DNA of 56,495 nt, counting the filler, from Stramenopiles sp. TOSAG23-6 (taxonomy: Eukaryota), in NCBI GenBank assembly GCA_900128565.1. It is 4 parts of 4 records of this genome, joined end to end, with 100 filler letters (N's around TTAATTAATTAA, not from the genome) between each part and the next. Parts side by side here need not be neighbours in the genome. Positions count along the whole stretch, not along the records: positions 1 to 14,086 come from LT636148.1; 3 more parts are not named here. The stretch is one strand, 5' to 3'. Under the pieces are notes generated by a model. It was given only the letters and a program-made list of their open reading frames with translations, searched no databases and had not been told where the DNA came from. Below are positions 391-56,442 of the stretch, in pieces; the first letter of the stretch is position 1; each line of letters starts with the position of its first letter. Position numbers and translations under genes: made by a program.

Positions 391-3300
391 ATGTCTGAAT
401 GGTTTCATAATCCAAGAGAAGAAGCAGCCAAAAGAGAGGCCGTAGCTAACGTTGTTGCTGCTACTTTGGCTCTCAGAGAAATAACAGAGTCTGTTTCATC
501 TCTTGACAACGCAGAACGTGACATCCCATGGATTGCCAAATTAGGAAGAGAGATCGTACAATCAATGATTGATTCTATTAAAGTTGGTAAAAATACCAAG
601 CGTTTTGTTGTAAATGGACTACGTGGTCTCGTTGATGAACTTGTCGAATTTCTCAAAATAATTCTTTGTAGAAAGCCTAACAATCAAGTTGCTTCGGGTG
701 GAAAGCCTAACAATCAAGTTGCTTCGGCAATCTTGACTGTCAGCGAAATTTTTTCATACCTTCACTTGGATGTGAGACAAAGCCATGATCGCGATGTTGT
801 GACTGAACTCGCCAGACTACTTACAAATGGTTTATGTTTTCTCTCCAAATCAAAAATGGAGGCTGAACATACAGAGAAGATCACCGAACATACAACTTTA
901 TCCCAGCATGAGCAAATCAATTCGGAACTTCAACTTTATGCTGAGACTACAGGTGGTATTACGATTGATATAAATACATTTCTCAAAGTAGGATCTATAT
1001 ACAATACCAACGAAATAGCCAAACAAAGATCAGAGACTCACGTGGAATGTAGCAACTTATTGATTAACTTGAGTTCCTTACTATTCTCTACTACAAATGT
1101 GACCCTCCAATTTCGAGTAGCGTTTCTCATTTGTACTCTTTGTCTTCAGATGTTTCCAATGACTAAAGGACAATCCAGTAAATGCCAAAAAAAAGATATT
1201 TTATGTTTATTTCAAAATTCAATGAATATGGATACTGCTGGTCAATCTATCGAATTCAATCCTGGTTCTCAAATTGTCAAATTATATGATTCGCAAAAAG
1301 ATGAAATCCAAAATAAGGAATGTGGTATTTATGATTTCGTACATAATACCAATATTTCAAAAAATGATATTTCTGTTGTACATTGTAATGCTGTAAACAT
1401 TTGCACACAAAACTCAACAACTCCGATATTTGNATCAAAAAATTGTCAAGAAGACGTTACAATTGAAGAATGTCATGCTCATTTTGGTACTTTTGATTTG
1501 TATTTTGTACCGTCAAGTTCTTGTCGTTTTGAACTAAGGAATGGACTACCCGCTCTAAATTATTTTGATGTATGGTTTATTTTTTTTTTCAATTTTAATT
1601 TTAATTTTTTTTTCGTACGGAATTTCGTACCTAACGATTGTTTTTGTGATTTTGTATTTTTTCACAACACATGATATTGCATATCTTGAATGGTCTAAAG
1701 AAAATAGAGAGATTGATATAATACTTCGTCATAACGACTTTTCGTTATCAAATCCTATTCTATCAAATCTAAGCACTCTACTTAGTGAAGATAACTCTCA
1801 TATTTCTATTCGACTACGTTTTGATGATCGCGAAGCATTTACACGTAATCTTACTACAATTCGTCGACATATAAATTCTAAATTGAGACCTCGTCAAAGT
1901 GTCTGTCAAAATCGTACGTACAACGTAGCAAGTAGTCTTGCTGCGGGAAATTGTTCTCAAATAATTGCAAATGGTTCCTCTTCAACAGATCCGAAAACAC
2001 CTCTTAATGTACGTTTTCATAATGAATTTAATTTTTTTTAGTTTGTTTTTGCATCATTCACTTCAATTATTAATTATTTGACAAAAATATTGTACTAAAC
2101 TGTTTAAAAATTTATTTTTTTTCACAATACAGCGATTGGAAAATAAACCCGACTCTGATGTACCCGACTCTGATGTACGTTTTCAATTTTTTTCTTAATT
2201 TTTCGTAGGAAATTTTGTACCTAACAGTTTTTTTTCGAAAAAAAAATTTTGAATTTGTTTGTTATTTTTTCGTAGAAAATTTTGTACCTAACAGTTTTTT
2301 TTTTTGAAAAAAAATATTTCTGACAAAATATACGAGTCCTAAAAGTATATTTAATTTTAAAGTAAGTACTGAAATTGAGTGTCAACCGATGATTAATTCT
2401 TCTAAATCTTCTGATCAAATCTCAAAAAAACAATTACATGTCGCGAATCATACTAGTAGTAGTAGTAGGCCAAAAGACCTCTGGAATCTCCGCGGAACTT
2501 TGACATCTGTAACATCAGTTTTGAATGATGCAAATGAAGCAGAACTTAAAGAAGCTTGTAAACAATTAGGATTAAATTCTAATTGTGAACAAAAAGATTG
2601 GATGATCTGTCGTATCCAGGTAGAATTAATAAATTGTGGGAATATTATCAGAGATGATCAAACTATTGTATGTTTTCATGGTTAATTTTTTTTTGCTACG
2701 AAATTTCGTATCTAACGATTTAAAACTAGTTGAATAATTTTAAATTTTGAGGATTTTTTTTCATACGAAATTTTGTACCTAAAAAATTTAATAAAAATAT
2801 ATTTTTCACACTACATGTAAGTGATATATATATAATGTATGCATGCTGATTTTTATTTCGTTTAATCGTATCTAACTTTTTCATCCATGTATCTTTCACA
2901 ACACAGGTATTAAGAAATAATCAAAAACAAGAAACACGAAATGTATCTGATCAAATACAACAAACACAAGATAAAAATAATCAAAAACAAGAAACACAAG
3001 ATAAAAATAATCAAAAACAAGAAACACGACATACATCTGATACTGGTCAATCTGGTTCTGCCCAAGTAGTTAATCTGCCACAGGGACGCCATGATTCGTA
3101 CAGTATATGTAATATTGATGGTGGTGATAAAATACCTCAGATTCCTGGACTTTCACCAAAAGACAAAAGCACATTATACGATTACAAAAAATGGTGGAAA
3201 AACTTGTCTGAAAAACAAAAAATAAAGATGAAATCCGATTATACAACGTTTTTATCAAATAAAGTCCTAATTCGTGCTAAAAAAGCGAGAATGAAACAAT

Positions 3301-5338: not shown

Positions 5339-5395
5339 AATTTTGTACCTAACAAATTTAAGTTTTTTTTTTTGAAATATTTTTTCAAAATACAT
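5339..5395 (+). mobile_element. 3' half of introner-like intron (AT acceptor), donor not found
   Basis: aattttgtacctaacaaattt...tgaaatattttttcaaaataCAT|gta tgt gca act ggt. Confidence 0.7.
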
Positions 5396-8927: not shown

Positions 8928-9260
8928 TTTGTGCTTTAACAACAATCAAAAAGTAATACCTTTATGAGTGTTACACAATTAGTTACGCGAGAACGACTTG
9001 ATGATCTGCGTCGATCGAGAGCTGACTCTCTCTGATCATGCTGAGGACACCACGCCACGATTTCGTGCATACGCGCCGCACCGCGAATTATTACCCACGA
9101 TTTCGTGTTCACATGATCAAGAATACGAATGATCCAATTTCAAATCAAAAATAAAAAAATTAATTTCAAAGAAAGAGGCGCGCATTTTCGCTTTTGAATA
9201 AGATAAAGAAATCGATTGGTTTGTGTGTGGTTCCTTTGGAAAGAATGTTCAATTAGTTTC

Positions 9261-12200
9261 ATGAGTATGAATAGTGAAAGTGGTTCCCTCTTTGAAGGTG
9301 GAGAAGATTCTTTATACACCTATGATGGGGATAGTTATGCTGACGAATATAATGATGATTCTAATAACGCAGATGATCTTGCGCTGATGGATTTAGGTGG
9401 TGGTATCGGTGTTTCTGATATATTTGGTACGGATATGGTAAAGAAGAAGAAACGTAAAAACAAACGGCGCTCTCTTTCAGATATAAAGGCAGAAGCTAGG
9501 CGCCGAGTGGAGCATAACGAAAGCAATCGTACTGTGCAGCTTACATCTTCTTTGAAAAAGGAGCGTCGAGAGACAGGAATATCTTCTACCGATGATGAAG
9601 ACGAGGAAGATAGAGAACGACAGGAATTACTGGCTCTTGAAGCTGAAGAGAAAAAACGTAAAATTGAGCTTGAAAACGAGGCAAAAAGAAAAGCTATGGA
9701 AGAAGAAAATGAAGCATCATTACAAAACACTCTTGGTTCACTTTCGTTATCTGAAACCGATTTTATTGTTAAAGCTAGTCAAGAACTCGTTGCTGATGGT
9801 AGGGATATAGATGAGAAGAACACCGACGACGTCGCAGATATACATGAAAATTCACCTGACGTGAAGGACACGTCATTTAATGCTAGTGGAACTGGTGGAG
9901 CAAGTCAATGGAGTGTTCGTGGGGGCTGTGGAGGAGGAGATGATAGTGGTTGGATGCTGTCAGATCAATTAAGTAATACAGGAGTTGTTCAACTAGGATC
10001 TCCTCAAGCAATTGAACTAGCAGAGTCCTCAGAATCAATAAGTGCTTCAAAAAATACGAATATGTCACCATCGGCTTCAACAAATCATTGGGATAATATG
10101 AAAGATGAAGGAGGATCAGATTCGAGTGATGATTTTGAGATTGATTCTGATAAAGAAAGTAAAGAAAAATTAACAAAAGATGATTTTGAGCTTGGTTCTG
10201 ATTCTGATAAAGAAAGTCTTAAACAACATACAATAGAAACATTAAAAACAGATACGATGGAATCAGTTGAATCTGAAAATGTTTCCTCACAGTCTCGTAA
10301 TACTGAAAATGATAAATANATTCAACACAGTGCTTCTGAAGATGGTGATGGATCTAATNTACATCAAAATCATGAATTCATGAAAAGTTTCACATCAGAG
10401 CAAAAAATGAAAATAGAATCATCAAATGATGATTTTTTTCATGAAAGTGAGTCAATGGACCTGACAACTGAAGGAAAGCAAGATATCACATTGAGTGCAC
10501 AGATCTTGAAACTTAATTCTGATATAGAAGAGGTAAATGATCCATTGAAGAAACACAAAGCTACAATGAGACAGGCTTGGGTTGAAAATAAAGAAGAATT
10601 AAAATCCCCAAAGAAGTCAAAGAAAGCAAAACGAATTGACATAAATTCTACCAAAAATGTAAAACGAAGAAAAAAAGTAAGACATCGAGGAAATAGTAAA
10701 AAACGAAGTATACGTAATAAATCAAATATTCGAAGGACCTCAAAAGAATACAGTACACATTCAATCCTCTCAAAGAAAAATGGGACAATAAAAGCAAACC
10801 AAAAAAAAAAAAAAAAAAATTTGAAATCGAGATCAAAAACAAAAACAAAAACAAAAAGCAGAGTAAACAGTCGGACACGACGTTCAAATCTAATTCCAAA
10901 AAGTGATGGTCGATCTCGACTTGCAGCCGTTCGTTCTTTGCAACCAAATGTATCCTACGACACAGATGTATGTTTTATTTTTATTTTTTTAAATTTGAAA
11001 TTGATTTTTTTTTCGTACGAAATTTTGTACCNAACAAATTTTTTTTTTATAGAAAATTTTTGAAATATTTTTCCAAAATACATGATGCAGCTGAAAAAGC
11101 TGAAAAAGAAGCATTTTGGTCCGCTATGCAGCAATCAATGTTATCGAGTCAGAAAAGCATGGAGGAAGCGAGTGATATATTACGTGGTAGTTCCCAAGAA
11201 GGATTTGGTACAATTATTTCCTCATTACAAGCTACTGTAGTTGCAAAAGAAAATGCCTTAGCTGCCGCTGAAGAAGCAATATTGTTACGCGATGGTGATG
11301 TGAGAAGACTAGAAGACGCGCTAGAACAAGCTACATCAAAAATCCAACAACAGGAATTGATTTTAAACGACGAAAAAAACTCATCCCAAATAACAGATGA
11401 ATCAAACCATAACCAAAAAGCAATAGAAGAAAAGACAAAATCTGAAATACAAAAGGAGATTATTGACTCTATAAGACTCACAGGAAACGAAACTGCAATT
11501 GAAAAAGTGAATCATTTAGAAAAAGAACTTGAACTTCAGGAGGTATTATTGAAAGGACTTCACACTGAAAATGAACGACTTGTTCAGAAAATGCGTGAAA
11601 ATGAAGAAAATTCGCGTTCTATGAGAGATGCAATGTTTCATGAAAGAAACAAACTCAATATTGAAGTAAATCAATTACGTAATGAAACTGGGACAAGTGA
11701 AACATTTAGGATGTCTCAACACGATTCTCCTGGCAGGGTCATGCATATTGCAAGTAATAGAAATGGTGAATTACTTCGACGAAATTTAGAATTAGAGACA
11801 TGTATTCAAGCAATGCGTGATGAGATGTCAGAACTGAGAGAACGTAGTGCAAGACGTCATGCAGAATTTCGTGAAGAAAGACGAATGTTAAAAGAAGAAC
11901 GACGACAATTGGAAGTTAAATTATCTGGTGTAAACGAAGATACAATAACTGCTATAAATAGTGAAGTAAAAGAACTTAGATCGAAACTTTCGATATCAGC
12001 AGCTCAGCATGCTGAAGAGGTGGCGATGCTTCAGGATAAAATTTCATTTCATGTTGAAAATGCAAAAATGGTTGATGAAAATAATGCCACAATTTCGAGG
12101 CAAGCTCAAGAAATTCGACAACTTCGTTCCCGAGTTCATTGTGATGAAGGTTTTGATCCAAATGTTGGGAATGGAAGTCGACATCGTCGTCGTCCTGGTA

Positions 12201-13344
12201 GTACATCAAATGGTAGAAATAATGTCAATGCAAAGCGAATTGCGTCATTAGAAAAGCAATTGAAGGAAGCCGAACAAGCGTTAGCGAGAAGATACCCAGA
12301 TTCTATTAGTAATTTAATACGAGCCGCTGGCCCATCTGAAGAGCAAAGGGATCAGCATACTCAACTTGTCGCAAAGGTCACAGAACTTCAAACTGAACTG
12401 GCAGATCGTAGTGACGCCGAGGAACGGAGATTACGTGCGTTGCGACAAGAGCATCATAAAGTGATCAACTTATTAGAGAAGAGATTAGAACGCCAAGAAC
12501 TTGCCGCTTCTGTGAATAATGTAGTACATCCAGGAAAGACGACTATAAAATCAAATAAAAGTCGAGTACGTGGAAAGTTTTCGAGAAATTCTGGGCACAA
12601 TGGTCCTGTATCCAAAGAGGATGAATTAGATCATGAGTTGGAGAGAGTGAGAACATTTTGGAAATCGAAAGTAGAATCACTTCAAAAACAGTTAGCTGCT
12701 GCTGGAGATAAATCTCGAAATAATGTTAATCATGCGATTGAAAATGATCAAAGGCAAAGTAATATAAATGTCACAAATAACAATGGACAAGAAAACTGTA
12801 TCCCACAAAGTGATATTAATGCTGCGACACAGAGAGCAATTAGTGCAGAAGCAGAAGTTAAACGTCTTTCAATTTTGTTAGAAAAAGGAGAATCAAATAT
12901 AATTTTCACAAACACGATGGAAAATACCTCAAAAATAAATTCTTCACAAAATGACGTTGTACAAACTGCACAAACAAAATCGTTCGATTCTGTACGTAAT
13001 ACATCGATACCTTTAACAATACACCAAGAAGCAATTCAAAAATTAGAAAGCCGATTAGCTGATAGTGAAAAATTACAACGGGAACTTTTGTCAGATTTGG
13101 CCGTATGTTTTATTTTTTTTTTAACAAAAAAATCGAATTTATTTTTCATACGAAATGTTGTACCTAACAAATTTAAGTTTTTTTTTTTTTGAAATATTTT
13201 TCCAAAATACATGAGAGGACCACAAATGAACAAGAACAGCTTTTGAGAATTAGAGCAGAACATAAACTAGAGCTTACTGAAGCAACAACGAAGCAAAATA
13301 AACAGTGGGCCTCTGCCCTTGCGGAATCAGAGAAAAAAACAGAT
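9261..13344 (+). CDS. CEP162: Centrosomal protein CEP162-like coiled-coil protein; exons 9261-10967, 11084-13102, 13213-13344; a further exon 13436-13615 is possible
   Basis: Motifs I recall from CEP162/QN1: LQEVLLKGLHTENERL, LQDKISFHVENAKMVD, IASLEKQLKEAEQALARRYPDSISNLIRAA. Frames join across the repeated introns. Confidence 0.7.
10968..11083 (+). mobile_element. Introner-like intron, GT...AT
   Basis: at|GTATGTTTTA...ttcgtacgaaattttgtacc(n)aac...ttccaaaataCAT|gat; in frame YDTD|DAAE; first downstream AG (+7) is out of frame. Confidence 0.85.
13103..13212 (+). mobile_element. Introner-like intron, GT...AT (in-frame AG at +3 possible)
   Basis: cc|GTATGT...gtacctaac...tccaaaataCAT|gag agg; gives SDLA|ERTTNEQEQLL. 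Confidence 0.8.
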
Positions 13345-13435
13345 GTACATTCTTCATATTGAATTTTATATTTGTTTTTGTAGATAATTTTGTACCTAAC
13401 AAAAATTTAAAATTTTTTGAAATATAAATTCACAT
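13345..13435 (+). mobile_element. Introner-like intron, tentative GT...AT
   Basis: at|GTACATTC...ttttgtacctaac...tgaaatataaattcaCAT; the downstream frame is open to TAA at 13615 but has no recognisable homology. Confidence 0.5.
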
Positions 13436-14186
13436 TTTTTTCATTTGGAAAAATTTCTACAATTAATAGATAAAGACATGCAAAAAGAGTCCGTTCAATC
13501 AATTTTTAATCGCAATTTTCCACGTGTTATTTGTGAACCAGCAAATTTTTCCAGATATTCATTAAAAGATAAAAAAGACTCTTTCTCGGGAGGGGGAGGA
13601 AATCTTTGTGCATAATACATACATAGGCAATTGTATGTACTATATTAAATATTTGGCAATTAAAAAAAATATATTTTTTGAAAAAACATTAAATTTTTTT
13701 TTTTTTTTTTTGAAAAAAATCAAAACAAATTTAGGGTTTTACTTTAATTTTTAATGTTATCTCTCTCTCTCTTTCTCTCTCACTAAATGATTTACAAATG
13801 AAAAACTTGAAAAAAGTATAAATAATCTTCGGTACCAGACAAATTGAGAATAATGCGATCGCATTGAACACCAAATTGTATACAAATTACCCGTAGTAAA
13901 TATCATAGTATTAGGGTTAGGGTTAATATTTTGTAGGTGTGTAGTCAATATATCAAATACTCCTGAATATATTGTGAAAAATAGCCCAAATGTTTTGTTA
14001 TTTTGTTTGTTAGGTATAATTTTTTTTTTGTTTCAAAAAAAAAAAAAAAAAAAAATCAGAAAAAAAATAAAAAAAAAAAAAAAAAANNNNNNNNNNNNNN
14101 NNNNNNNNNNNNNNNNNNNNNNNNNNNNNNTTAATTAATTAANNNNNNNNNNNNNNNNNNNNNNNNNNNNNNNNNNNNNNNNNNNN

Positions 14187-14240
14187 GTACAAAATTTCGT
14201 ACGAAAAAAAAACTCGAATTTGAAAAAAAATAAAACATAC
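14187..14240 (-). mobile_element. 5' half of introner-like intron, truncated by gap
   Basis: Minus strand GTATGTTTTATTTTTTTTCAAATTCGAG...TTCGTACGAAATTTTGTAC then N. Confidence 0.75.
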
Positions 14241-28264: not shown

Positions 28265-28364
28265 NNNNNNNNNNNNNNNNNNNNNNNNNNNNNNNNNNNN
28301 NNNNNNNNTTAATTAATTAANNNNNNNNNNNNNNNNNNNNNNNNNNNNNNNNNNNNNNNNNNNN

Positions 28365-28446
28365 AAAAAAATTAAATTCGAAATTTGTTAGGTACAAAAT
28401 TTCGTACGAAAAAAAAAAAAATTTGAAATTCATAATGAAAACGTAC
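28365..28446 (-). mobile_element. 5' part of introner-like intron, truncated by gap
   Basis: Minus: gt|GTACGTTTTCATTATGAA...TTCGTACGAAATTTTGTACCTAAC... then N. Confidence 0.8.
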
Positions 28447-29848
28447 ACCAAGTTGGCAAGTTTTTCATCAATAAAGGAAGGAAGCATAGCTGTATTAATT
28501 GTAAATTGTTGCTTCCATACCTTTTCAGGTGATACCGATGGATTACTAGCGACAAAAAATTCACTGTAAGGATCAGAAAAAATTCCTACTTCGCACCAAC
28601 TTTTTAAACAATTAAATAAAGGTTTTGTTAGTGAATCTAATTGGCTCTGAACAAAGTTACTTACTGTTATATCACCGTGTTGCATATGTAGATATATAGC
28701 AGATGCAAGCGCCCCTCCATGTATTGTGAAAAATATTCTAAAAGTTTGGATTTTTTTGTTAGGTACGGAATTTTCATCGAAAAAAAAAATAAAAGTGTTA
28801 GGTACAAAATTTCGTATGAAAAAAATAAAAAAATTTGAAATTGATGATGAAAACGTACATGAAGTCCAATAGATGAATCGGCAATTATTGCCATCAAGCG
28901 CAAGCGATCAATTGGTGTTTGTAACCATATAAACAATCGTCGCAATGTCAATGAAAAGTGCTGTGGTTTTCTATTTTCTCCTTCTTCTTTTTTATTATTT
29001 TTGTTTTGTAAAGCATCGCGATTAACTTGAGCTTGAATTATCGCAATTAATCTATAAAATTCGCTTAACTCAGTTTTCAATGAAAAACATAACGCATTTT
29101 GACATAAACCTGAACGGGTATCTTTTTCACAATGTTCAATGAAATTACCGAGCTTCCTAAAGAGCCAACCACCTTCAGTGATTTTACGTATCAAAATTCT
29201 CGTAGGTTTTGGAACTCCAAAATTAGCGCATACGACATAGCCTCGCTCAGTAGCATCATACTTAATATACGTACCATCAATACCCTGAAGAACAAATAAA
29301 ATATCTCTTATCAATAATTGCTCAGATACTTCAAATGAAAAGTTTTTACCAACGTTGTAGTGAGTCTCAGAAAAATTAATGGTTTTTGTAGTTTTTCCAG
29401 GGGATTTTTCACAGTGATTACTAGATAATGATACATTTTCTTTTAATGATAATCCTAGACTCGGTTCTAGCAAACTTGGTTGAAATGAAGGAGGGGAATC
29501 TGAACTCATACTTTGAGAACCACGTAGTGCATGGAGAATCTGAAGTACTCCACTTTTGTTCTGAATGGCGCCAGACTTTCTGAATAAATGACATAGCTCT
29601 CGGAATTTCAATGGGACGCTCGTTTCATTACTATTAACTCGAGCAAGATAACGCTCTATTTTGATAGCCATTGTATCAATATCATTCCTAGATAGTATTC
29701 GTGAGTTGGTGGTTGAGGTTGAGCCTACAATACGCACGCAGTATTCTAATAAACTTGAATGCTTTTCTTCGTTATGTGGGCATATACTGGACACAAGTCG
29801 TCGTAATAGTAACGCAACCACTTCTTCTGGTCTAGCACTACGCTCCAT
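28447..29848 (-). CDS. TUBGCP3: Gamma-tubulin complex component 3 (Spc98 family), 3'-partial; exons 29848-28859 and 28718-28447
   Basis: EVSEQLLIRDILFVLQGIDGTYIKY, GLCQNALCFSLKTELSEFYRLIA, LTLRRL, GGALASAI...HGD, DPYSEFFV, MLPSFI match GCP3 grip motifs. Confidence 0.88.
28719..28858 (-). mobile_element. Introner-like intron with two cores, GT...AT
   Basis: Minus: cat|GTACGTTTTCATC...gtacctaac x2...cacaataCAT|gga ggg gcg; restores GLH|GGALASAI. AGs at -19 and +4 are both out of frame. Confidence 0.88.
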
Positions 29849-30113: not shown

Positions 30114-33100
30114 ATGGATCCCAATATATCTACAGATATGAAAGCAACAAAGGATCGCTTCGACACATTACTGAATGAACTTTGTAATGAAAATCCTGAT
30201 TTATCTGGAGTCGTGGTGGTATCTGATGAGAAGAGATTGAACGCAGTAAGGAAAGATTTTGAAGACTGTTCAAATCAAAAAGAATATCTTAGTGTTCTGC
30301 ATAGACACTTATTTCAAGAAGAACAAGCTCAATTTTGTGACAGTATAAATGTTCCTATTCGTTGGTTGCGAGAAGCATGTCGTAAAGATGATACATCTAT
30401 GCGGGAATCCCCGACCGAAAAGCAAGTCCGACTAGACGTGCAGCGTGATATAGTTGTAATCAATGACTCTACTTTTATTGGCGCTGATTCTGGTTTTGAC
30501 AAAATATTTAATCATCTCACAGGAAGCATCAAAGAAGTGGGAGAAAACGTAAACATCGATATAGAAAAACTAAATAAAGAAGCAATGAAAATTCTAACAG
30601 AAAGCTGTAGAAGTGTGTCTGCCGGCGATTCGTTTGATGCAGTAACAAATTTATTAAGTTCACCATATATCCATGTACGTTTTTTCTCATCATGAATTTT
30701 TTAAATGTATATTTTTTTCATAAAAAGTCATAGTCTTACAAAAATTGAAATTTGACATATATTTTTACAATAAATATCACACAAGATACTACTTGTTCAA
30801 AACCAATTCGTCTAGATGTTCATTTGGGTGCTTTTACAAATGGATGGGGTCTTGGTGTTGCAATAAATGTTGTGTCTCTTTTTAACATATGTTCACCAAT
30901 AACAGATACTGAAAATGAACCAAATATTTTACAAAAACTTTCAGTCACTTTTCAAAAAAAATGGTTATTAGATGTTGAAATTGGAAAAAGTATGAAACGT
31001 GCACCTAAAACAAAATACGATAAAGCAAATAATGAGATAAATACATCTAGTTATGTTCCAGATGATGGTGTGATTCTATTTTCACTGCGTTCAGAACAAA
31101 ACAAAACTGTGGATACTTCAATAATTAATGGGAAACAATATAATGAGAAAGATGAAACAAGTAGCAGCATTCCTATCAATCTCCCTTCAGATGAAAGCGA
31201 GGAAGATGGGATTATTTCGTCTGATTCTGAATTTGATCAAAATGGCAATGAAAAAGATTTCAATGAACGAAATAGCTCTGTAAATCATATGAAACGTTCG
31301 CTTAAGCGTGCTAAACATAAATCAAAAGCTCGGGCTCGTGCAAAACAAATGGCTGAAGCTGCAGGGATGATACGTAGCGATAAAACAAAGCAAGTAATGA
31401 ATCAAACAAATAATAATATAAATACAAGAAACAACTCTGCTAGTGGTGACACATTATCGACCTCAAGTCATTGGAATGGCCATTTATTAGAGGATACAGA
31501 TACGTTGGAAAATATGGCTTGCACTGAAGTCTTCTGCATGGGTGATAATTCACATGGAACTCTTGGATTAGGAGATTTAAACACGAGAAAAACTCCTTCA
31601 TTGTTATTAATACCTAGTGAAATTACTGGTCTTGCACGCGTGAAATCCATATCATGTAGTGCGTTACACTCTGTGGCTGTGACGGATCTTGGTATCGTCT
31701 ATACATGGGGATCAGGATCTGAAGGTGCATTAGGCCATGGTGATAGTGAAGACTCTGCAATCCCTAGATTTGTAGAATATCTTGCAACGATGGATCCACC
31801 TGTACAAGTAACTACAGTATCAGCAGGATCGGAGATATTAGGTGCGCATACCGCAGCAATTACATCCGGCGGAGAACTTTTTCTATGGGGTTTAGGTGTT
31901 GCCACGGGTCTCGGTAGTGGTACAAATGTTGAGCTCCCGAAACAAGTTGAAGAATCGAGGCTTGGAAGTGATAACCCTGAGAAGGGTGGAGGTATTGTGA
32001 CTGCTGTTGCGTGTGGGGGAGCATTTACAATTGCTGTAACTGCTGATGGGTCATTATATTCCTGGGGTAAGTGGGCGAGTGGTCGCCTGGGACTTGGCAT
32101 GCCTCAAGCACATAAAAGCAGAGCTCGAGGAAAACTTTTTAAACGAGCTCGAAATCCACGCTTTCAATTGGTTCCAAAACGAATTAAAAGTATTTTGCTG
32201 GACAAATTTATTACACACATTGCAGCTGGTGAGGCTCATGCATTGGCAGTAGACAGAGACGGTACTTTGTATTCGTGGGGCAGAGGTTCATCTGGTCAGC
32301 TAGGGACATCAAATAGTCGTGATAGTATGGAACCTATGAAGGTTACAGGTCAAGACGTGTACAATAGAAAAGTATTCCAAAGCAGTCAAATTATTCCGTA
32401 TACTTTAAACGGCAATCAATCCGAATTGAATCATTTAGGTCCTATTATATGTGTGTCGTGTGGTATTAATACTTCTGCAGCGGTCACACAAAATGGAAAG
32501 CTTTGGGTGTGGGGTGGAGGAGGCCGAAGAGTATTGGGGCTTGGCTTACCTTTGGGTAATAAACTTGCTGGTTTAACGGTTCAAAGACAAGCACAGATGC
32601 AAAAACTTGAAGATGAAGATAGTACCGAAGATGCAAGAAAACGACGCGGAGATTGGTTTTTGCCTCAACAAGTCAATGCACTATCTGAATTGCATGTTTC
32701 AGAAGTTTCGTGTGGCTCGCATCACATGTGTGCAGTGACTCGTCACGGTTCTTTGTATATGTGGGGTAAAATAAATGATGACCCAGTTGTATCTATACCC
32801 CGATTATTATCATCCATTGCGCCTGCTGGTGAGAGTCTAAAGGAACGCCAAGCGCGTGCTCTTGATCCAAGAAATAAACGCCAAAGGGAAGAAGAGGATT
32901 TAGGACAACGTCAAGTCATTTCTGTAGAGTGTGGTGGATCCATGATATTTGCATTAGCCCATAGTAATATATTGGGCAATGCAATGCTAAGTGAAATGGA
33001 ACGATGCGTCGCTGTTGTTATTGCTACTGAATCCCTTGACCCAACAGGATGTGATGCTACTATATTTGCATCGGGTAGACCGATATATGCACATCGCTTA

Positions 33101-38990: not shown

Positions 38991-39961
38991 ATGGTACTTG
39001 ATTTTGCAAGGTTGCGAAAGGAAATGAAAATGCAAAGGAAAAAAAAAGTTGAAGTCAAGCAGACTTCAACTCTTCTAGATGACTCCCTGACTTTCAATTT
39101 GGCATCACGCCGCCTTACAATTCCTGGCTGTAAGTATGAAGTATTTTATATACCAAACTTTTTGAATGAAAAAGAGAGTCAATTGGTAGACGCTGGAATT
39201 TTTGAATGCTCTGGTGTGTGGTCGACTCTATCCAATCGAGAACTTCTCAATTTGGGTGGTATTCCACATCCAAGTGGGATGATGGCAGATGAACTCCCTA
39301 ATTTCACAAAAGTCATTTGTGATCGTCTTGTCTCTTCAGGTATATTCCCAAGCAATTTATACCCAAACCAAATTCTTGTAAATAAATATACACCTGAGGG
39401 AGGAATTGCTCCACATCAAGATGGACCATTGTACTATCCTCAAGCTGCTGTTCTTTCTCTACGAAGTGCTTCTGTAATTCATTTTTGGACTTTACCAAAT
39501 GATAAATTTAAAAAAAATGGTTTTGAAGTTGTCGCAGACAAAGATCCTTTATTTTCTGTAGTATTAGAACCGCGTAGTCTATTAGTATTTAGCAAAGAAG
39601 CATATAGTAATCTTCTTCATGGAATTTATCCCGGAAATTCTCCTATTGTTGTAAACCCCAAAACATGTACGTTCATCATATTTTTTATTTTTTTTTCGTA
39701 CGAAAATTTGTACCTAACAAATTGTAACGTTTTTTTTGAAATATTTTTCGTAATACATGTAACTTGAAAGAACTTTACTGCAATCAACAAAAAATAAATA
39801 TATCTATTGGCGATGAAATAAAACGAAACAATAGAGTTAGTTTGACTTTTCGTACTGTCAAATTTGTAAAAAAAGAATCGAATGATTTTTTATCAGATGA
39901 AGAAAAATTTGAAAAAAAAAGGAGATGGAATTGGTGGTTAAGTTCAATTTCAGAAGACTAA
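38991..39961 (+). CDS. ALKBH6: AlkB-family 2OG-Fe(II) dioxygenase, ALKBH6-like; exons 38991-39666 and 39759-39961
   Basis: YIPNFL, NRELLNLGG, PNQILVNKY, PHQDGPLYYP (HxD), LEPRSLL, LHGI; terminal RVSLTFR lies in exon 2. Confidence 0.85.
39667..39758 (+). mobile_element. Introner-like intron, GT...AT
   Basis: at|GTACGTTCATC...ttcgtacgaaaatttgtacctaac...cgtaataCAT|gt; brings RVSLTFR into frame; the first downstream AG (+12) creates TAA. Confidence 0.87.
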
Positions 39962-42360: not shown

Positions 42361-42419
42361 GTATGTTTTATTTTTTTTTCAATTTCAAATTTATTTTTCG
42401 TACGAAATTTTGTACCTAA
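42361..42419 (+). mobile_element. 5' half of introner-like intron, truncated by gap
   Basis: at|GTATGTTTTA...ttcgtacgaaattttgtacctaa then N. Confidence 0.8.
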
Positions 42420-42573
42420 NNNNNNNNNNNNNNNNNNNNNNNNNNNNNNNNNNNNNNNNNNNNTTAATTAATTAANNNNNNNNNNNNNNNNNNNNNNNNN
42501 NNNNNNNNNNNNNNNNNNNTTTGTACCTAACAATTTTTTTTAGATTTTTTTGAAATATTTTTCCAAAATACAT

Positions 42574-42935
42574 GGGCAACCAAACTGCTCTTGAGCAAGA
42601 AATGCTGCTGGAAGCGGATATTAATAAAGATGTATGTTTTAGTTTTTTTTTAAACAAAAAAATCGAGTTTTTTTTTCGTACGAAAATTTGTACCTAACAA
42701 ATTTTAGTTTTTTTTTTTGAAATATTTTTCCAAAGTACAGGGCGTTCTTTCAAAAGAGGAGAAATTGAATTTTGTTAAGAAAAAGAGTAAGAGCATTGGA
42801 AGACGAAAAAAACGAAAGAAGAAATCAAAAAAAGACTTGTCCTTTGATTTTGATGATACAAGTAAAATGGTACTTTTAGGGGTTGGAGTAGCTACTGTTG
42901 CAATAGGTGTATTTTTTTATATGAAGAGACGGTGA
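42574..42935 (+). CDS. C-terminal exons of a tail-anchored protein (42574-42631, 42741-42935)
   Basis: Follows an AT acceptor at 42573; GNQTALEQEMLLEADINKD|GVLSKEE...MVLLGVGVATVAIGVFFYMKRR. Confidence 0.6.
42632..42740 (+). mobile_element. Introner-like intron, GT...AG variant
   Basis: at|GTATGTTTTAG...ttcgtacgaaaatttgtacctaac...ttccaaagtaCAG|ggc; phase 0. Confidence 0.85.
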
Positions 42936-44491: not shown

Positions 44492-46049
44492 ATGTGGAAT
44501 AACGGGACGAATGCACTTCCTGTAGATTTGAAGAGGCTAGATAACTTACGTAACTCTAAAGACCCTATGCTGCTGCTGCCGAAAAGTAGCCAGCAAGCAG
44601 CATGTAATAGTCTTGCTTGGATTGCAGAAATTGCCGATGAAGTAAGAAAGCAAGATTCGTCGACAATTACGTCAAATGCGTCAATAGCTGCGTTACAGAA
44701 TAATAAAACTGTTCCACGCGGGTTCAATCCAACTGAGTATAGTAGTAATTTCACGTATACACAAATGAATACACAACCTAAAGTACATAGACTTATACAA
44801 TCAAAATCACCCATACAACAACAGCAGTTTATGCCATCCCCGGAAGGTAACCATTCAAGTTATATAGGTGACGTATATCATACTGGAAATAATATAAATG
44901 CCGCGTATGCCTCTCATGGGCCTGGTCGTAATCAATCCAGGTACGAAAATAGTAATTGTTTGTCGAATAGCCCTAATAGAACAAATGCTTTGAATATGAA
45001 TAGATTACAATTTGCGCAGAATAATAATTCTAATTTTTTGTTTCCTAGGCGAATGACATCTCACCAGAGCATTGCGTTCCAAAATTCCAGTGCCTATGCA
45101 CAACAAGCTCAAATGAATCATTCCATGCCTGGGTACGTTTTCGTCATGAATTTCATTTTTTTTTTGGTACGAAATTTTGTACCTAACATTCTTGTTTTTC
45201 GAAATATTTATTCACAATACAGTTTGACAACTGGAATGACAACAGGATTGAAGCGCAAATTCATGGGGGACATTATAGACCCATCAATGGCAGACAGCAT
45301 GTGTGTTTTATTTTTTTTCAATTTCGAATTTTTTTAATATGAAATTTTGTACCTAACATTTTTAGTTTTTTTTTAAATATTTTTCCAAAATACATCCAAC
45401 GAAACAGAAAATTACTGAAACTATCTGCACCTCCACCACCCTATATGTCACAACAATCTAATTTAGTTTTTCCTAACCGTAACTTTTCAGGCCGAGTTGG
45501 AAACAATCAAATACAAAAAAGTAAAGCACCAGTTCGACGCCCACGGCCAAAAAAAGGCCCTTTAACTGCCGAAGAGAAGCTGAGACGTAAAAAGCAGCAT
45601 GCTGATGTTGAACGAAGGCGGAGTGCTCGCATTATTAGTTTATTCAATACCTTACGAAGAGTTTTACCATCGCAGAATGTATGTTTTANTTTTTTTCNAA
45701 NTCNAAANTTTTTTTTTTATAGTAAATTTTGTACCTAACGAATTTTTTTTTGAAATATTTTTTCAAAATATATGATTTGGAATACGTTGGTCCGGGTATT
45801 TCGGCGTCTTTAGTGAAAAAAAATGCAACACCGGTCAAGAAAAAAAAGAAACGGTCTAATGTGAATACAGTTGTTTTAGATAAGGTTTCCGTTTTGTCTC
45901 AGGCAGTGAATCGTATTAAAAAGCTGGGAGCTACACTGAGGGCAGCTGGCAAATTGGTAGTTTCTACTGTTACGTCTGATGGTGGTAAACCTACAGGGAC
46001 ATCTGGTAAACCTAACCCTAAACCTAATAAGAAGAAAGATAATAAATGA
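44492..46049 (+). CDS. bHLH transcription factor; exons 44492-45132, 45223-45300, 45396-45678, 45774-46049
   Basis: Basic/helix 1 RRKKQHADVERRRSARIISLFNTLRRVLP and helix 2 LDKVSVLSQAVNRIKKL are joined by removing 45679-45773; N/Q/S-rich N-terminus. Confidence 0.82.
45133..45222 (+). mobile_element. Introner-like intron, GT...AG variant
   Basis: gg|GTACGTTTTCGTCATGAA...gtacgaaattttgtacctaac...cacaataCAG|t; 90 nt. Confidence 0.85.
45301..45395 (+). mobile_element. Introner-like intron, GT...AT (in-frame AG at +12 possible)
   Basis: at|GTGTGTTTTA...gaaattttgtacctaac...ttccaaaataCAT|c; in frame with ORF 45445. Confidence 0.78.
45679..45773 (+). mobile_element. Introner-like intron, GT...AT
   Basis: at|GTATGT...ttttgtacctaac...ttcaaaataTAT|gat; first downstream AG is +40 and out of frame. 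Confidence 0.83.
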
Positions 46050-49435: not shown

Positions 49436-52400
49436 ATGCTAGTAGATGAAGACGGTAAAGACAACTCTATTGTAAATGAAGAGTCCAAGCCACTCTTGAG
49501 TAGCACCGACTCACAATTTAAAGAAAATACTAACGAAAATCAAACAGTAAAAAACGTTTGTTGGAATCGACATTATGTTATCATAATTCTCGTGACGTTA
49601 ACAGTTATAACTGCTATCTCTTTGGTAGTTGCACTTAAACTACAACCTACAAAAAAAAGCCCAAACAATGTAATTACTCCAAACAATGACGGGGGAGCTG
49701 AAGATAAAAGTTTTTTTGATCGAACAAATGAGGTGACTAGTTTAGTCCAGGGCACCCAAAACTATGTAAAGAAAGCTAAACGAGACGACCGCACTTACAA
49801 ATATATCACTCTATCTAATAAGTTAGAGGTTCTACTTGTCAGTGATCCTTCTACAGATGTTGCTGCTGCATCAATGTCAGTGGGTGTTGGGTCTCTTTGT
49901 GACCCTGAGCAATTTGCAGGACTTGCACACTTTTTGGAGCATATGCTTTTTTTAGGTTCGGAAAAATTTCCAAATGAAGACCAGTTTGCAAAGATAATCT
50001 CTCAACATGGTGGGTTTACTAATGCTTATACTGCATCTTCTGAAACGAATTATCACTTTAATATTGGCGAGCAATATCTTAAAACTGCGTTAAAAGTTTG
50101 GAGTCAATTTTTTGTATCGCCACTTTTGACAAAGAGTGCCATTGAGCGTGAAGTGAACGCAGTGAACAGTGAGCACGAGAAAAATATAAATAATGATGCA
50201 TGGAGATTCTCTCAGCTACTAAAATCTACTTCATCAGCATCACATCCGTATCACAAGTTCGCAACAGGTAATTTAGACACACTTTTGAAGTCTAATTCAA
50301 ACGATAATTTGGAAAAGGCTTTAAAAACTTTCTTTACACAATATTACGTAGCAAATAAAATGAAGCTTTCTATTTTAGGTAGTGAATCTGTGAATGATCT
50401 CCAAAAATATGCCAAAACACTATTCCAAGATATAAAAATGTCTGCTGATGATTCTGATTTCTGTTACTCTCCTTCGGTGTACGTTTTTATCCCTACCCTT
50501 AATTTCAAATTTATTTTTTTCGTACGAAATTTTGTACCTAACGAATTTTTTTTGAAAAAAAAAAATCCTTTTCACAATGCATCGTACGCGAGCCAGATAA
50601 GCTTGGAGTTCAATATATTCTTAAACCTATTGCAAAAAAGTATACTTTAGAAGTTTTTTGGTTCTTCCCGCTGATGCGTACTCATTTCAAAATCAAACCT
50701 TTAAGTTACATTGCAAGTCTTATGTATGTTTTATTTTTTTGAAAATTTGAATTTGTTTTCGTACGAAATTTTGTACCTAACAATTTTTTTTAGATTTTTT
50801 TTTGAAATATTTTTCGAAAATACATTAGCAATGAGGGCAAAAATTCTTTATTATCGAATCTAAGAAAGAAAAAGTGGGCTGATAATGTTGCAGCTAGTGA
50901 GGGGGATGAAGGTTATGATTACACTATATTTTCAGTGTATTTCTCCTTGACAGAATTAGGAGTTACAAAGGTTGACGAAATATTGCTTCTTCTTTTTGAA
51001 TTGATAGGTAAAATGCGCCAGGAGGGTGCTGAGGAATGGCGTTGGCGTGAACTTCAAAAGATATCACAATCTTCATTTGACTATCAAGAAAAAATGGATC
51101 CTTCTGATTATGTTGAATTTATATCAAATGCAATGCAACAATATCCAAGGGTTAATATTCTTACTGGTAGTTTCATTTTCGAAAATTATGAAGCTGACGT
51201 TATTCGTAATGCGATTGATATGTTGACCCCAGAGCGAATGGTTGTAATGGTTGGCGATCCAAGTAAAAAAGATGATTTTTATACAAAGGAAGAACATATT
51301 TATAAGACCAAGTATACGGATAATAATATACCCAAAGAGTTTCTTAAAAAACTCGGGAATGTATCAACCACACACACAAAATCCTTATCGCTTCCACTGG
51401 AAAATCAATACATTTCTACAGATTTTTCATTATCCCCTAATGTTCAAAAATATCATGATGAAAAAAGTCCTAGCACGGATAGTAAGAATTGCGATCAAAA
51501 TTCCTGTAGACCAAAGTTACTGGAGAGTCAAAGTCGTCACAGAGTTTGGGTTCGACCCGACCGTTACTTTGGAAACCCTCATATAGACCTAACGATCTTA
51601 ATTGACATGGGAAGGGGAGAGAAAAGAGAAGTTCAAGAAGTAGAAACTCCATCTGATAAAATGCGATTTAAAAGATCGGCTACCAGTGTATATACTGATG
51701 AAATGATGGAGGTTCAGGGAAATGACAGTAAAAAAGTAAATGTGAGCAGTAGCATTGTAGAAACAAAGAAGCTCTTACGACAAGAGTTGATTAAAATTAT
51801 TTATGCTAATGTGCTGTCACATGCGTTAGTAGAAAAAATGGCAGATGCTTCGGTAGCAGGATATTCAGTCGATTTCGATAGAACAAGCACTGGAGTTTCA
51901 CTGAATATTCGAGGATTTTCAGAAAAGTTTGACAAAGTTTTGAAAGAAACTTTAGATTTTATTAGAACTTTTCTTTCAAGCGAAGAAAACTTTGAAAACT
52001 TTGAAGAAATTGTACAGAGCATTACAAGAGGATGGGAAAATTTCCCCAAACAACAACCTTACGAAAAGGCATTGTTTTTGCTTAAATATACACTTCGAGA
52101 ACCTGTATTTACACCTGCCGAATTCCTACAAGAATTACATAAAACAGAGTCGGAATCTAAAATTAGTAATGGCAATGGCGATGAAAGTCCTTCCCCAGTA
52201 TCTTCTTCACTAAAAGCAGGTAATGTACCAGAATCTAAAAGTAGTAAAGACTCAGTAATACATGAACTAAAAAGCAGTGATGGAGGTCCCATAAGTCCAC
52301 CAAAAGGACCACCAAAAGCTAGGTTTAAAGAGAAACAAAGGCGGGAGAACAACGGTCGATTTCGTGCAGTGAAAACTCTTGCACCTACCGCCCCGAGTAG

Positions 52401-54302: not shown

Positions 54303-55805
54303 ATGGATTACTCGAAATGGGATAATCTTGACACTGGAAGTAGTGGTGACGATTCTGATGATGCGTATGGACGCTTGCCACCATCTCTACCCACATTTAA
54401 CGACACGTCGCTTTTGCAGTGTGGTGTTCAAGAGCGAAAAATTGGTCAGCTAGCAGTAGATGCCTGTCTGGAGAAGCTTGCTTCTGGAGCTGACCCAAAT
54501 AGCTGTAATAGAATGGGCCAGACTGCGTTGCACATTGCTGCCATCTGGGGTGGAATGGGAGTTGGGCGAACTCTACTCAAAGCTGGGGCTAATGTAAACG
54601 CTCGTAATATGATGCGTGGTTCAACGCCTCTTATGATGGCTGCTGGACGGGACCAAGCTGAATTTGCAAAGTTCCTTCTCGAGAACGGTGCAGACCCCAC
54701 GATGCGGGATACTTCCGGTCAATGTGCCTGGCAAATGGCTTCTGACGAGTCTCTTCGCATGCTTTTAGGAGGTCCATCGCCAGAGCTCACTGATGCGACT
54801 CTCGAAGGAAATCTTCAAAGGGTCAAAGACGTCCTTCGCCGCAATCCCGAGCTTTTAACCGTGCGCAATGGTGACGAAGAAACAGCCCTTACACTTGCTC
54901 TCAAAGAAAGACATTGGCCAATCGCTAGATACTTTATCAATCACCCTGACGCGGCATCTCTAATAAATTTAGAAGATTCAGACGGCGCATATCCTCTGCA
55001 CCTTTGTGTTCGTATGGAAAATCTCCCTCTTGTTGCTGAATTGCTGAAATGTGGTGCTGATCCTAACCAGAAAGCCTATCGTTATACTGAATATACCAGT
55101 GGTAGGTTTGATAAAATAGATAAGGCTACTGGAGAAAAGACGACTGTTTCAAACGAACATTGTACGCCCCTACTTGAATGTGCAAAAAATGGTAATATCG
55201 ATATTGCGAAGTTACTCATTCAGAGTCGATGTGACGTTGACGCGACAGATGGCGATGGATGTACAGCTCTTTATATCACGCTTGATGAATACGCTGATGC
55301 TCTTGATGATGATGAATCTGAATCTAAATCTAAAGATCGTATCGAGAAGAAAAAAGCGATGGCGGCTCTTTTGCTATCAAGTGGTGCATCCCCAAATATT
55401 GGTAACGCTTATATAGGCTACGATAATACACTTCTTGCTTGGGCATCATCGTCAAAAAATATTGAAGTTGTTAAACTTCTTTTACAATACAAAGCAGACC
55501 CAAATATTGCTGGGAAATCTGGAATGTACCCGCTTCATATGGCAACTCGTGTAAACTGTGTCCCAATACTACAATTATTATTGGAGGCTGGTGCTACGAT
55601 TGATGTAAAGAACAAAACAGGCCAAACTGCTTTATGTACTTTTTTTTTTTTTCACATTTTTTTTTCATATGAAATTTTGTACCTAACGATTTTTTTTTGT
55701 TAGTAAAAAAAAAATATATTTTTTCACAGTACATATCTATCCCAAACTTGTAAGAAGACAGATATTACAAACCTATTATTACAAGCAGCTGCCGCTCTTA
55801 TATAG
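54303..55805 (+). CDS. Ankyrin-repeat protein; exons 54303-55635 and 55735-55805
   Basis: Many repeats (GQTALHIAA, GSTPLMMAA, GAYPLHL, GMYPLHMA); last repeat GQTALYLSQTCKKTDITNLLLQA is completed by splicing; N-terminal MDYSKWD motif. Confidence 0.9.
55636..55734 (+). mobile_element. Introner-like intron, GT...AT
   Basis: at|GTACTTTT...gaaattttgtacctaac...ttcacagtaCAT|at; the CAG 5 nt upstream would break the ankyrin frame. Confidence 0.87.
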
Positions 55806-56442
55806 TTTTTCATTAGTGTATGGAAACAAAAATGACATTGGTATATTATTTATAAATAATAAGACCAAGTGCAATACAATGTGAAATGTCTTTTTAGGGA
55901 TAATATTTCGTGTCTTTTTAGGGATAATATTTCGTGTCTTTTTAGATGTAGAGTGATTTGCGTGAACTGTGTGAAACAATGTTGTAAGCGTGTGACTATG
56001 ATTCTATGAAATAATTTGTATGAGAGAAAATGTGGTGCGAGTGAGTGTGTAGTATTACGTGGTGTTTATATTTTGGAGTGTGTGTATATTTAAATTTCAT
56101 ACAAAATTTGAAAATTTCATAAAAAACATAAAAAAGAGCTAAAAAAGAAATGATTTCATTTCATATATATTATATGAATATTTCAAAAACAACGTTAGGT
56201 ACAAAATTTCGTACGAAAAAGAAATCGAAAAAAATATGGAACATGTTTTTTTATTTATTGTTTGTCCAGTTCAAATAATATTCGTTTTTACTTTTGCTAA
56301 CGTAACAAAATTTGTACCAAAATTTATCAATCAAGTAACAAAATTTGTACGAAAACATTTAATCATACATCTGACTTCACATACACCACTACATGCCTCA
56401 TTTTCGTACATCCATTCTTCTACATAATAATATCACATTGTC

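Follow-up and report, generated by a model that had tools for sequence, protein, structure and literature searches.

A repeated, intron-forming element family with probable GT-AT borders in a marine stramenopile genome

Introduction

Are the short interruptions of long open reading frames (ORFs) in the genome of Stramenopiles sp. TOSAG23-6 (assembly GCA_900128565.1) introns, miniature inverted-repeat transposable elements (MITEs), or both, and at which letters are they removed? The question is raised by a 116-nt interruption at positions 10968-11083, plus strand, of the 56,495-base stretch analyzed here (the window, which joins four parts of the assembly end to end). An earlier note on this DNA had read its ends as those of a MITE, with GTA...TAC inverted termini and an AT target duplication that supplies an AT splice acceptor. 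We find that the interruptions are one repeated, intron-forming family (an introner), and we consider it on balance probable that 10968-11083 is a copy of this high-copy family with GT-AT borders, in a gene-dense, AT-rich marine stramenopile. From the sequence, we infer that the spliceosome takes the copies out of pre-mRNA with GT-AT borders and, in about one-third of cases, with GT-AG borders.

Results

The interruption at 10968-11083 and its host gene

The host gene and the parts of the interruption are listed below. X3 is an independent seawater run with contigs from a close lineage, and a caret marks an intron border here and in the rest of the text.

9207..10967, plus strand: upstream exon (frame 0) of the host gene; mostly synonymous changes relative to the X3 lineage
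10966..10967, plus strand: exonic AT before the donor, belonging either to a possible 2-bp target duplication (as its upstream half) or to a preference for insertion at AT^G
10968..11083, plus strand: the introner copy in question, 116 nt, read as GT...AT; nhmmer E = 5.6e-23 against the family model
10968..10973, plus strand: donor motif GTATGT (family consensus GTAYGTTT)
11011..11022, plus strand: perfect 12-nt palindrome in the element core, with 10 exact copies in the window, all within family copies
11027..11035, plus strand: motif GTACC(N)AAC, resembling a branch site and placed 49 nt before the 3' end of this copy
11082..11083, plus strand: terminal AT, putative noncanonical acceptor (AT in 15/21 and AG in 6/21 copies at this aligned position)
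11084..13102, plus strand: downstream exon of the host gene, frame 2; 11/13 X3 differences here at third codon positions

The copy reads AT^GTATGT...ATACAT^G and interrupts a long ORF. The frame-0 ORF closes with GAT at 10965-10967, the frame-2 ORF restarts with GAT at 11084, and once the 116 nt of 10968-11083 are removed, 587 and 702 open codons are fused in phase 0. The coordinates of the earlier note, 10966-11083, are correct, with ATGTA at 10966-10970 and its reverse complement TACAT at 11079-11083, and the note's statement that removal of the element plus one AT restores the host sequence holds as well, the reading frame being intact across the join. With the flanking AT included, the inverted termini of this copy are complementary at 8 of 9 positions (6 of 7 without it). 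Since AT stands both before the donor and as the last two bases, the borders can be written AT...AC, TG...CA, or GT...AT with an identical product. Over both exons, the window and the X3 lineage differ at 16 positions. Read in the frame of the exon concerned, 12 of these changes affect third codon positions and 11 are synonymous, which indicates that the host gene is under selection across the frame switch.

A repeated family of intron-forming elements

A family profile was built from 13 copies and used to search the 56-kb window with nhmmer at a cutoff of E < 1e-3. The search returned 31 stretches (13 of them the copies used to build the model), and similar introns lie in unrelated genes, bearing out the suggestion that the interruptions form an introner family. 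Nearly every intron that could be identified in the window is a family member, and the host genes include those for GCP, peptidase M16, HLH, ankyrin, KH, and 2OG-oxygenase proteins. Copies are 90 to 160 nt long and share 48 to 90% pairwise identity; the most similar pair noted, 13103-13212 with an AT end and 42632-42740 with an AG end, is 90% identical.

The 5' end, the core, and the 3' end are conserved in the alignment of the 13 copies, which follow a common plan. Its 5' part consists of GTAYGTTTT, a variable T-rich stretch, and a core that holds the perfect palindrome TTTCGTACGAAA followed by GTACCTAAC; its 3' part is a T-rich tail that ends in ...ATATTTTT(C)CAAAATAC-AT or in ...TTCACAATAC-A[T/G]. 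The donor is nearly invariant (n = 18: G 18, T 18, A 17, C/T 9/9, G 16, T 17). The branch-site-like 9-mer GTACC(N)AAC matches the window 40 times with at most one mismatch, against 5.5 expected, and lies 34 to 49 nt before the 3' end in most copies. For the 12-nt palindrome, 0.01 exact copies would be expected, and each of the 10 present lies inside a copy found by nhmmer.

Seawater-run contigs, compared with positions 10360-14086 (10964-11031 and 13107-13133 masked), also point to a high copy number: summed contig depth reached about 670 to 72,000 over intron bins, versus 6 to 8 on the flanking exons in X3, and contigs from other loci diverge immediately behind 13212-13214, the 3' border of the neighboring copy. 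N runs surround a TTAATTAATTAA linker at 14087-14143, 28265-28321, and 42420-42515, and all three start inside family copies, as expected if the repeat breaks assembly; we read them as scaffold gaps.

No shared fold that would bring the intron ends together is predicted for the copies. Applied to 12 of them, RNAalifold proposed a single stem of 5 pairs in the core (consensus energy -0.58 kcal/mol, with 0 covarying pairs) and no conserved pairing of the ends, on which ground a hairpin-dependent, nonconventional intron of the Euglena or Amoebophrya type was rejected. A scan of a metagenome collection with the 17-nt core gave 64 loci, of which 3 had an nhmmer match, confined to the core, and none held a family member; one locus with several core matches (L019) proved to be an unrelated, GC-richer tandem array. 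In a viral collection, 6 loci matched in the core only and none held a family copy. The metagenome matches to the 17-nt core are chance hits.

Borders, flanks, and the question of a target duplication

The border catalogue comprises 18 copies with both ends, 3 with a donor only, and 3 with an acceptor only. AT precedes the donor in 15/21 copies and T occupies position -1 in 19/21, a recount that upholds the bias reported earlier (14/21 and 18/21). Among GT sites inside long ORFs of the same window (n = 1745), 176 (10%) follow AT and 502 (29%) follow T, giving binomial p values of 3e-11 and 6e-9, respectively. The last two intron bases are AT in 15/21 copies and AG in 6/21, the two alternating at the same aligned column in both subtypes, and in 12/21 the exon that follows opens with G, compared with 20% G in coding sequence (p = 2e-4). 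Given the alternation of AT and AG, the strict GTAYGT with G at +1, and the six flanks other than AT, we write the borders as GT-A[T/G], not AT-AC.

AT stands at both junctions in 10 of the 18 two-ended copies, as a target duplication would have it. If the duplication supplied the acceptor, as the earlier note proposed, flank and 3' end should covary locus by locus, and this covariation is absent. Matches between flank and end equal the shuffled expectation at all 16 positions from -8 to +8 (n = 18), and AT ends occur in 10/14 AT-flanked copies and in 2/4 others (Fisher p = 0.57). An AT target duplication is thus indistinguishable here from a preference for insertion at AT^G; identity of the two flanks at the shuffled level is the case termed ambiguous in PMC9860276 (this and most sources cited below are drawn on in part). 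The copy nearest the family model (13103-13212) has CC as its flank yet ends in AT, and the copy at 45133-45222 has the flank GG and an AG end, which suggests that the element probably carries its own terminal A[T/G]. The AT^G context may accordingly reflect a strong target preference, a 2-bp duplication, or both. As for the flanks other than AT, which had been put down in part to later drift of the exons, we count six of 21 rather than seven; on that view, CC and GG would each need two substitutions.

How much of a MITE remains in this? Terminal inverted repeats of MITEs usually measure about 10 nt or more. Across the family, the inverted termini come to GTA (17 to 18 of 18 copies) and TAC (13, 17, and 14 of 18) only, and in the GTACG subtype, they amount to about 3 to 4 of 10 positions, judged by eye on the aligned ends and not computed. 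The earlier note's interpretation stands insofar as the element is an introner, is polymorphic, and leaves no scar on removal; the MITE part of it does not stand as to the termini, which span 3 to 9 nt (the terminal inverted repeat criterion of PMC9860276 is at least 6 nt), and the duplication is unproven. No transposase was found in the 35 ORF pieces of the window that were scanned, in line with the earlier note; a 1042-amino-acid ORF considered as a transposase candidate (46276-49401) has no Pfam or PDB match.

The placement of the copies bears on the route by which they spread. All complete copies, with both ends, lie in genes in sense orientation. Stretches free of ORFs hold copies that are degenerate or truncated, and one ORF contains a core fragment in antisense orientation. 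The ORF-free and antisense copies favor spread at the DNA level, and the strict sense orientation of the complete copies fits an RNA route equally well. By the latter, an intron of the same family, with the same borders and an element-borne AT end, would reverse-splice at AT^G proto-splice sites and then be reverse-transcribed and recombined into the genome. Such a route would explain why intron and inserted unit coincide exactly, at 116 nt, a single AT being expected where the element is missing, and it is in keeping with the lack of flank/end covariation, the CC flank and AT end of the best-matching copy, the sense orientation of all two-ended copies in genes, and the absence of a convincing inverted repeat and of a transposase; fungal introner-like elements have been so interpreted (PMC9860276). 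It is at odds with copies or fragments outside or against ORFs at 43989, 17986, 56160-56242, and 16658-16708 (one of them antisense), with the 8/9 complementarity of the ends in the subtype of 10968-11083, with the DNA-transposon marks in most nonfungal introner families (PMC9860276), and with the window, in which no reverse transcriptase was seen. We regard the RNA route as unlikely, and as the alternative that survives best.

A further possibility is that the AT-flanked copies are AT-AC introns, ^ATGTAYG...ATAC^, of either the U12 or the U2 type, which would give the same mRNA. The borders are ambiguous by 2 nt in the 10/18 copies with AT on both flanks, and AT-AC introns obey the known pairing rule for the first and last intron bases. 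Furthermore, U12-type introns of Physarum tolerate odd 3' ends, GT-AT among them (bioRxiv 10.1101/2020.10.12.336362). However, the flanks CC, GT, GT, CT, TT, and GG exclude an AT start in the copies that bear them, the register of GTAYGT, with G at +1, is conserved, and 6/21 copies have AG in place of the final AT. A U12-type intron was rejected on both of its marks. The donor departs from the [G/A]TATC[C/T]TT of the Physarum preprint at +5 (G in 16/18) and +6 (T in 17/18), and the branch-like motif lies 34 to 49 nt from the 3' end, not about 10 to 12 nt. We therefore consider AT-AC borders very unlikely.

Evidence for removal at GT...AT

Removal of GT...A[T/G] restores the reading frames of the copies. 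Two genes with recognizable protein domains support the position of the AT border. Within the gene for a gamma-tubulin complex protein, the GCP_N_terminal profile is matched from 1 to 130 up to five residues before the intron at 28719-28858 and resumes at 138 with the first residue after it, so that the AT site fits as the border of this intron. In the peptidase M16 gene, exon 1 ends at about position 58 of Peptidase_M16_C, and the third residue of exon 3 corresponds to position 107; the part in between is supplied by the 47-residue exon that the two GT-AT introns enclose. At junction 2 of this gene, the AT-acceptor model aligns without gaps to a conserved block in 7 homologues, and the residues VREPD immediately behind junction 1 are shared with P0123, a JGI metagenome insulysin with 51% identity.

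P0123 also carries a 39-residue low-complexity insertion, FLFSLSLFLFLFL..., exactly at the position of the intron at 50479-50582, directly before VREPD. Possibly, the insertion is an intron that was left unspliced at the corresponding place in a distant relative, in which case the position of the 50479 intron would be older than the family.

Could these be ordinary GT-AG introns whose AT ends have been misread? This is how a near-identical EukProt record was modeled. The gene model P0121, restricted to GT-AG, places one acceptor at the AG that lies 3 nt beyond 50825 and, for the 50479 intron, pairs an internal GT with an AG further downstream; an in-frame AG alternative is available in 6/11 AT-type copies. 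Against this, 5/11 have no in-frame AG between 30 nt after the donor and 60 nt past the AT. P0121 itself keeps 18 intron-derived residues, drops VREPDK, which is conserved in P0123, and needs a 1-residue gap where the 7 homologues align without one. The domain continuity of the GCP intron fits the AT site, and the X3 contig described below is shorter than the window by exactly 116 nt at 10968-11083. We judge the misreading of GT-AG introns to be most improbable.

When the 50 residues that follow the junction served as a protein query for intron-less or spliced forms, none of 56 candidates scored as a hit.

An empty site in a close relative

The earlier note had called for presence/absence polymorphism in related genomes, with one AT at the empty site. 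Contig 2 of X3 (593 letters) fits this form: its letters 67 to 163 align to 10867-10963 and its letters 166 to 547 to 11082-11463. Only 2 letters thus stand in for 118 bases of the window, which makes the contig shorter by exactly 116 nt at 10968-11083. The joint would read ...ACAC-AG-AT-GATG, with one AT. The contig differs from the window at 6/382 of the positions that follow and thus comes from a close but distinct lineage. Contig 3 of X3 reaches 13106, four bases into the next intron, so the next copy is apparently present in the X3 population. X3 is labeled "DNA?", and its longest contig, at 96 kb, fits DNA, although this status is a guess. With X3 probably DNA, the data fit a presence/absence polymorphism at 10968-11083 between close relatives; if X3 were RNA, contig 2 would be direct evidence of splicing at the borders of this copy.

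Ciliate internal eliminated sequences leave one copy of a flanking dinucleotide on excision, and a comparable DNA excision, with the X3 contig as processed DNA, would suit short, AT-rich elements with a repeated flanking dinucleotide that are precisely absent from a probable DNA contig; we consider it the least probable explanation of all, as the X3 lineage retains the next copy (contig 3 into 13103-13106), the 6/382 differences mark another lineage and not the same genome after processing, conserved donor, branch-like, and T-tract signals would be needless for DNA cutting, and intron tails joined to exons occur in RNA-library contigs, a poly(A) library included, for which DNA carryover is possible.

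Proposed mechanism and points against it

According to the introner reading that we prefer, the element would bring its own donor, branch site, T tract, and terminal YA[T/G]; it would insert behind AT and then be removed by the major spliceosome. The acceptor would lie 34 to 49 nt past the branch motif, with AGs 7 to 18 nt from the motif being skipped, and tolerance of U at the last intron position would imply relaxed 3' splice site recognition in the lineage. By analogy with Fritillaria, altered U2AF-type or second-step factors would be candidate readers of the 3' site. The family probably spread in recent times, insertion into AT^G sites at the DNA level being the likeliest route, with a 2-bp AT duplication possible and unproven. 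The six copies that end in AG could be later T-to-G improvements or subvariants.

Several observations weigh against this account. Concerning splicing, no RNA contig bridges any junction over the stretch compared (10360-14086, masked as above), so that splicing at AT is inferred, not observed; X7 record 17 and X8 record 31, the RNA contigs that extend to a border, allow more than one reading, and others, one poly(A) library included, carry unspliced intron tails joined to the exons of other loci, which fits pre-mRNA and also DNA carryover. Of the 6/11 AT-type copies with an in-frame AG alternative, two have it at +3, one has it at both +12 and -30, and the others have it at +39, +48, or further. 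Concerning insertion, the DNA status of X3 is backed only by the length of its longest contig, and the polymorphism is not polarized between gain and precise loss. Six of the 21 5' flanks are not AT (TT, CC, CT, GT, GG, and GT), CC and GG differing at both bases, and flank and 3' end match at -2 and -1 in 14 and 12 of 18 copies, compared with 14.0 and 11.0 for shuffled pairs. The inverted termini are very short, GTA...TAC family-wide being less than a MITE terminal inverted repeat, and the 35 ORF pieces scanned in the window contain no transposase, integrase, or reverse transcriptase domain. Finally, with copies only 48 to 90% identical, much of the family is not very young, and all copies come from one 56-kb window, with no more in the metagenome or viral collections.

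Other copies in the window

The remaining copies, with their 5' flanks and the evidence for each, are as follows.

1570..1672, plus strand: family copy GT...AT, flank AT (nhmmer, frames)
2009..2132, plus strand: intron with a family-like 5' part, flank AT, AG end (sequence alone; no open frame for the 2132 acceptor)
2175..2331, plus strand: family copy with duplicated core, GT...AT, flank AT (nhmmer, frames)
2668..2906, plus strand: composite GT...AG intron with flank TT, enclosing a family copy that has an out-of-frame ACAT end of its own (2816)
5339..5395, plus strand: 3' half of a family copy before the cyclase ORF, ACAT^G end (nhmmer)
13103..13212, plus strand: family copy GT...AT, flank CC (best match to the family model, E = 4.5e-24)
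13345..13469, plus strand: diverged family copy GT...AG, flank AT (nhmmer, frames)
14187..14240, minus strand: 5' part of a family copy, flank CT, remainder lost in a gap
28377..28446, minus strand: 5' part of a family copy, flank GT, 3' part lost in a gap
28719..28858, minus strand: family copy GT...AT, flank AT, inside the GCP_N_terminal domain (Pfam continuity; no in-frame AG alternative)
30675..30775, plus strand: intron whose 5' part resembles the family (each of the 16 listed in-frame acceptor options has an AT end; the 3' end given is one among several in-frame AT sites)
39667..39758, plus strand: family copy GT...AT, flank AT (nhmmer, frames)
42361..42573, plus strand: family copy or copies across a gap, flank AT, ACAT end (nhmmer, frames)
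42632..42740, plus strand: family copy GT...AG, flank AT (90% identity to 13103-13212)
45133..45222, plus strand: family copy GT...AG, flank GG (nhmmer, frames)
45301..45395, plus strand: family copy GT...AT, flank AT (nhmmer, frames)
45679..45773, plus strand: family copy GT...AT (ATAT), flank AT (no in-frame AG alternative; the HLH domain is not traceable across it)
50479..50582, plus strand: family copy GT...AT (GCAT), flank GT, peptidase M16 gene (frames, Pfam, homologue alignment)
50724..50825, plus strand: family copy GT...AT, flank AT, peptidase M16 gene (in-frame AG 3 nt downstream)
55636..55729, plus strand: family copy, flank AT (by frame, the AG 5 nt upstream of the family ACAT end at 55734 is used)
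56160..56242, minus strand: degenerate family copy in an ORF-free stretch, flank AT (nhmmer)
56443..56495, minus strand: 3' part of a family copy at the window edge, ACAT^G end (nhmmer)

The catalogue leaves aside core-only or truncated matches with no recognizable ends (at about 43989, 17986, 6540-6602, 16658-16708, 15633-15667, and 38225), the unused internal sites 2816 and 2837, and an intron near 16900 whose borders are not fixed. In two copies, 2668-2906 and 55636-55734, the family ACAT end is out of frame and an in-frame AG lies 90 nt downstream or 5 nt upstream, respectively; judging by the frames, these copies have shifted to canonical acceptors.

Three of the partial copies have features of their own. 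The ATG of the guanylate/adenylate cyclase ORF overlaps the ACAT^G end of the half copy at 5339-5396, and the Pfam match of this ORF starts at profile position 63; the upstream exon of the gene seems to be missing or far away. At 17964-18060, a truncated, core-only copy (E = 3.8e-6) lies between two GACTTTTGAG strings of 10 nt, about 83 nt apart, and the GACTTTTGAG pair looks like a longer flanking duplication than the AT of the genic copies. The antisense core fragment at 16658-16708, a minus-strand match, lies within the plus-strand coding ORF 15812-16915; around it, plus-strand GTACGG...AATAG is a possible 54-nt in-frame mini-intron.

Host lineage and gene content of the window

The window has a G+C content of 31 to 41% and includes 462 Ns among its 56,495 bases. 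Long ORFs crowd both strands, those of 876 to 2,604 codons being intron-free, and their domains are eukaryotic (CPSF73, RCC1-BTB, ankyrin, KH, peptidase M16, gamma-tubulin complex protein, and others). An Rfam scan of the window gave no match, and no small nuclear RNA gene was found in it. The closest named relatives are two EukProt records labeled GSMAST32, one with 79% identity over CPSF73 (protein P0002, 634 amino acids compared with the 876-codon ORF of the window) and one with 97% identity over the first peptidase M16 exon. We take the label, by our reading of it and not by computation, to denote a MAST-3 marine stramenopile.

Two further observations concern the window at large. The minus-strand ORF at 46276-49401, of 1042 codons, matches neither Pfam nor any PDB sequence. 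The telomere-type hexamer TTAGGG occurs as a dimer 10 times with at most one mismatch, against 0.08 expected, at 8889, 13911, 16867, 18219, 43768-43785, 43957, 44271, and 46010-46027. Several of these dimers seem to lie between ORFs, and the scattered dimers may be a promoter or terminator motif.

Discussion

Significance

We see about even chances that, in this MAST-3-like stramenopile, the major spliceosome routinely accepts AT and that a mobile element targeting AT^G seeded most introns of the genome, thousands of them GT-AT by extrapolation from at least 21 copies in 56 kb. If so, public gene models that force GT-AG would be systematically wrong at family sites. The misconstrued peptidase M16 model P0121 suggests that proteomes of abundant, uncultured marine grazers are probably corrupted at such sites, and the short P0002 model of CPSF73 may be another case. 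Should RNA data agree, the host would be a protist whose introns, for the most part, depart from the GT-AG rule in its last letter alone and retain textbook donor and branch signals. The family would then offer a clean natural experiment on 3' splice site choice and, next to Fritillaria, the second independent example of joint change in a mobile element and a spliceosome.

We found no published GT-AT introner family in MAST-3 or in stramenopiles in the parts of the literature drawn on; the supplementary lists of PMC9860276 and PMC12130899 could still name one. The main text of PMC5778133, on MAST single-cell genomes, does not mention noncanonical introns ("canonical" occurs 0 times and "intron" 2 times). 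As far as their consulted parts state, the introner surveys PMC9860276 and PMC12130899 start from annotated introns, and the latter accepts AG and AC 3' ends only; surveys built on annotated GT-AG introns would miss this family.

Comparison with known systems

Introners that recruit a splice site from a flanking repeat or target duplication are established (PMC9860276, PMC11282704), and those of Micromonas pusilla and Aureococcus described there are among the closest likenesses of the stramenopile family. Both are short, nonautonomous, high-copy elements that insert into exons of many genes and are removed as introns, putatively so in the stramenopile family; they bring some of their signals themselves, have a flanking repeat able to complete a splice site, and vary in presence between close isolates. 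By the same parts of these sources, the algal elements have duplications of 3 to 8 bp, clear terminal inverted repeats, and GT/GC-AG borders, whereas in the stramenopile family the repeat is at most 2 bp (AT) and unproven, the inverted ends span 3 to 9 nt, and two-thirds of the copies end in AT.

As in Fritillaria borealis, the introns are transposon-like and in lineage-specific positions, they imply an altered spliceosome, and an exonic motif is repeated at the intron 3' end as a non-AG acceptor, a putative one in the stramenopile family. The passages drawn on describe MITE-derived AG-AC and AG-AT introns with an exonic TAC before them, AT being a common last dinucleotide (PMC11282704), and divergent U2AF paralogues that recognize non-AG ends (bioRxiv 10.1101/2025.08.15.670264). 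Unlike the stramenopile family, with its strict GTAYGT, its strong branch-like motif, and only the last base deviating, the introns of Fritillaria mostly begin with AG and have very diverse borders (PMC11282704); the host there is an animal and here a protist.

In Physarum, too, mass intron gain has been attributed to an element with short inverted ends and a 2-bp flanking repeat, TA in that case, which is proposed to lie behind the expansion of U12-type introns (bioRxiv 10.1101/2020.10.12.336362). The U12-type donor and the branch motif 9 to 12 nt from the 3' end reported there are both absent from the stramenopile family, and GT-AT, which makes up 17% of 1,014 U12-type noncanonical introns and is thus a rare variant in Physarum, is the majority form here.

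The introners of Amoebophrya are likewise repeated, noncanonical introns with short direct repeats at the junctions, a MITE-like origin under discussion, and no cognate transposase in the parts of PMC7789003 drawn on. They have hairpins with inverted repeats of 8 to 20 nt and neither fixed borders nor consistent terminal dinucleotides, unlike the uniform borders and the lack of predicted structure in the present family. Judged by its sequence, the stramenopile family differs from all of these systems in combining a canonical donor and a branch-like signal with a putative AT acceptor in the majority of copies, minimal inverted ends, and no hairpin.

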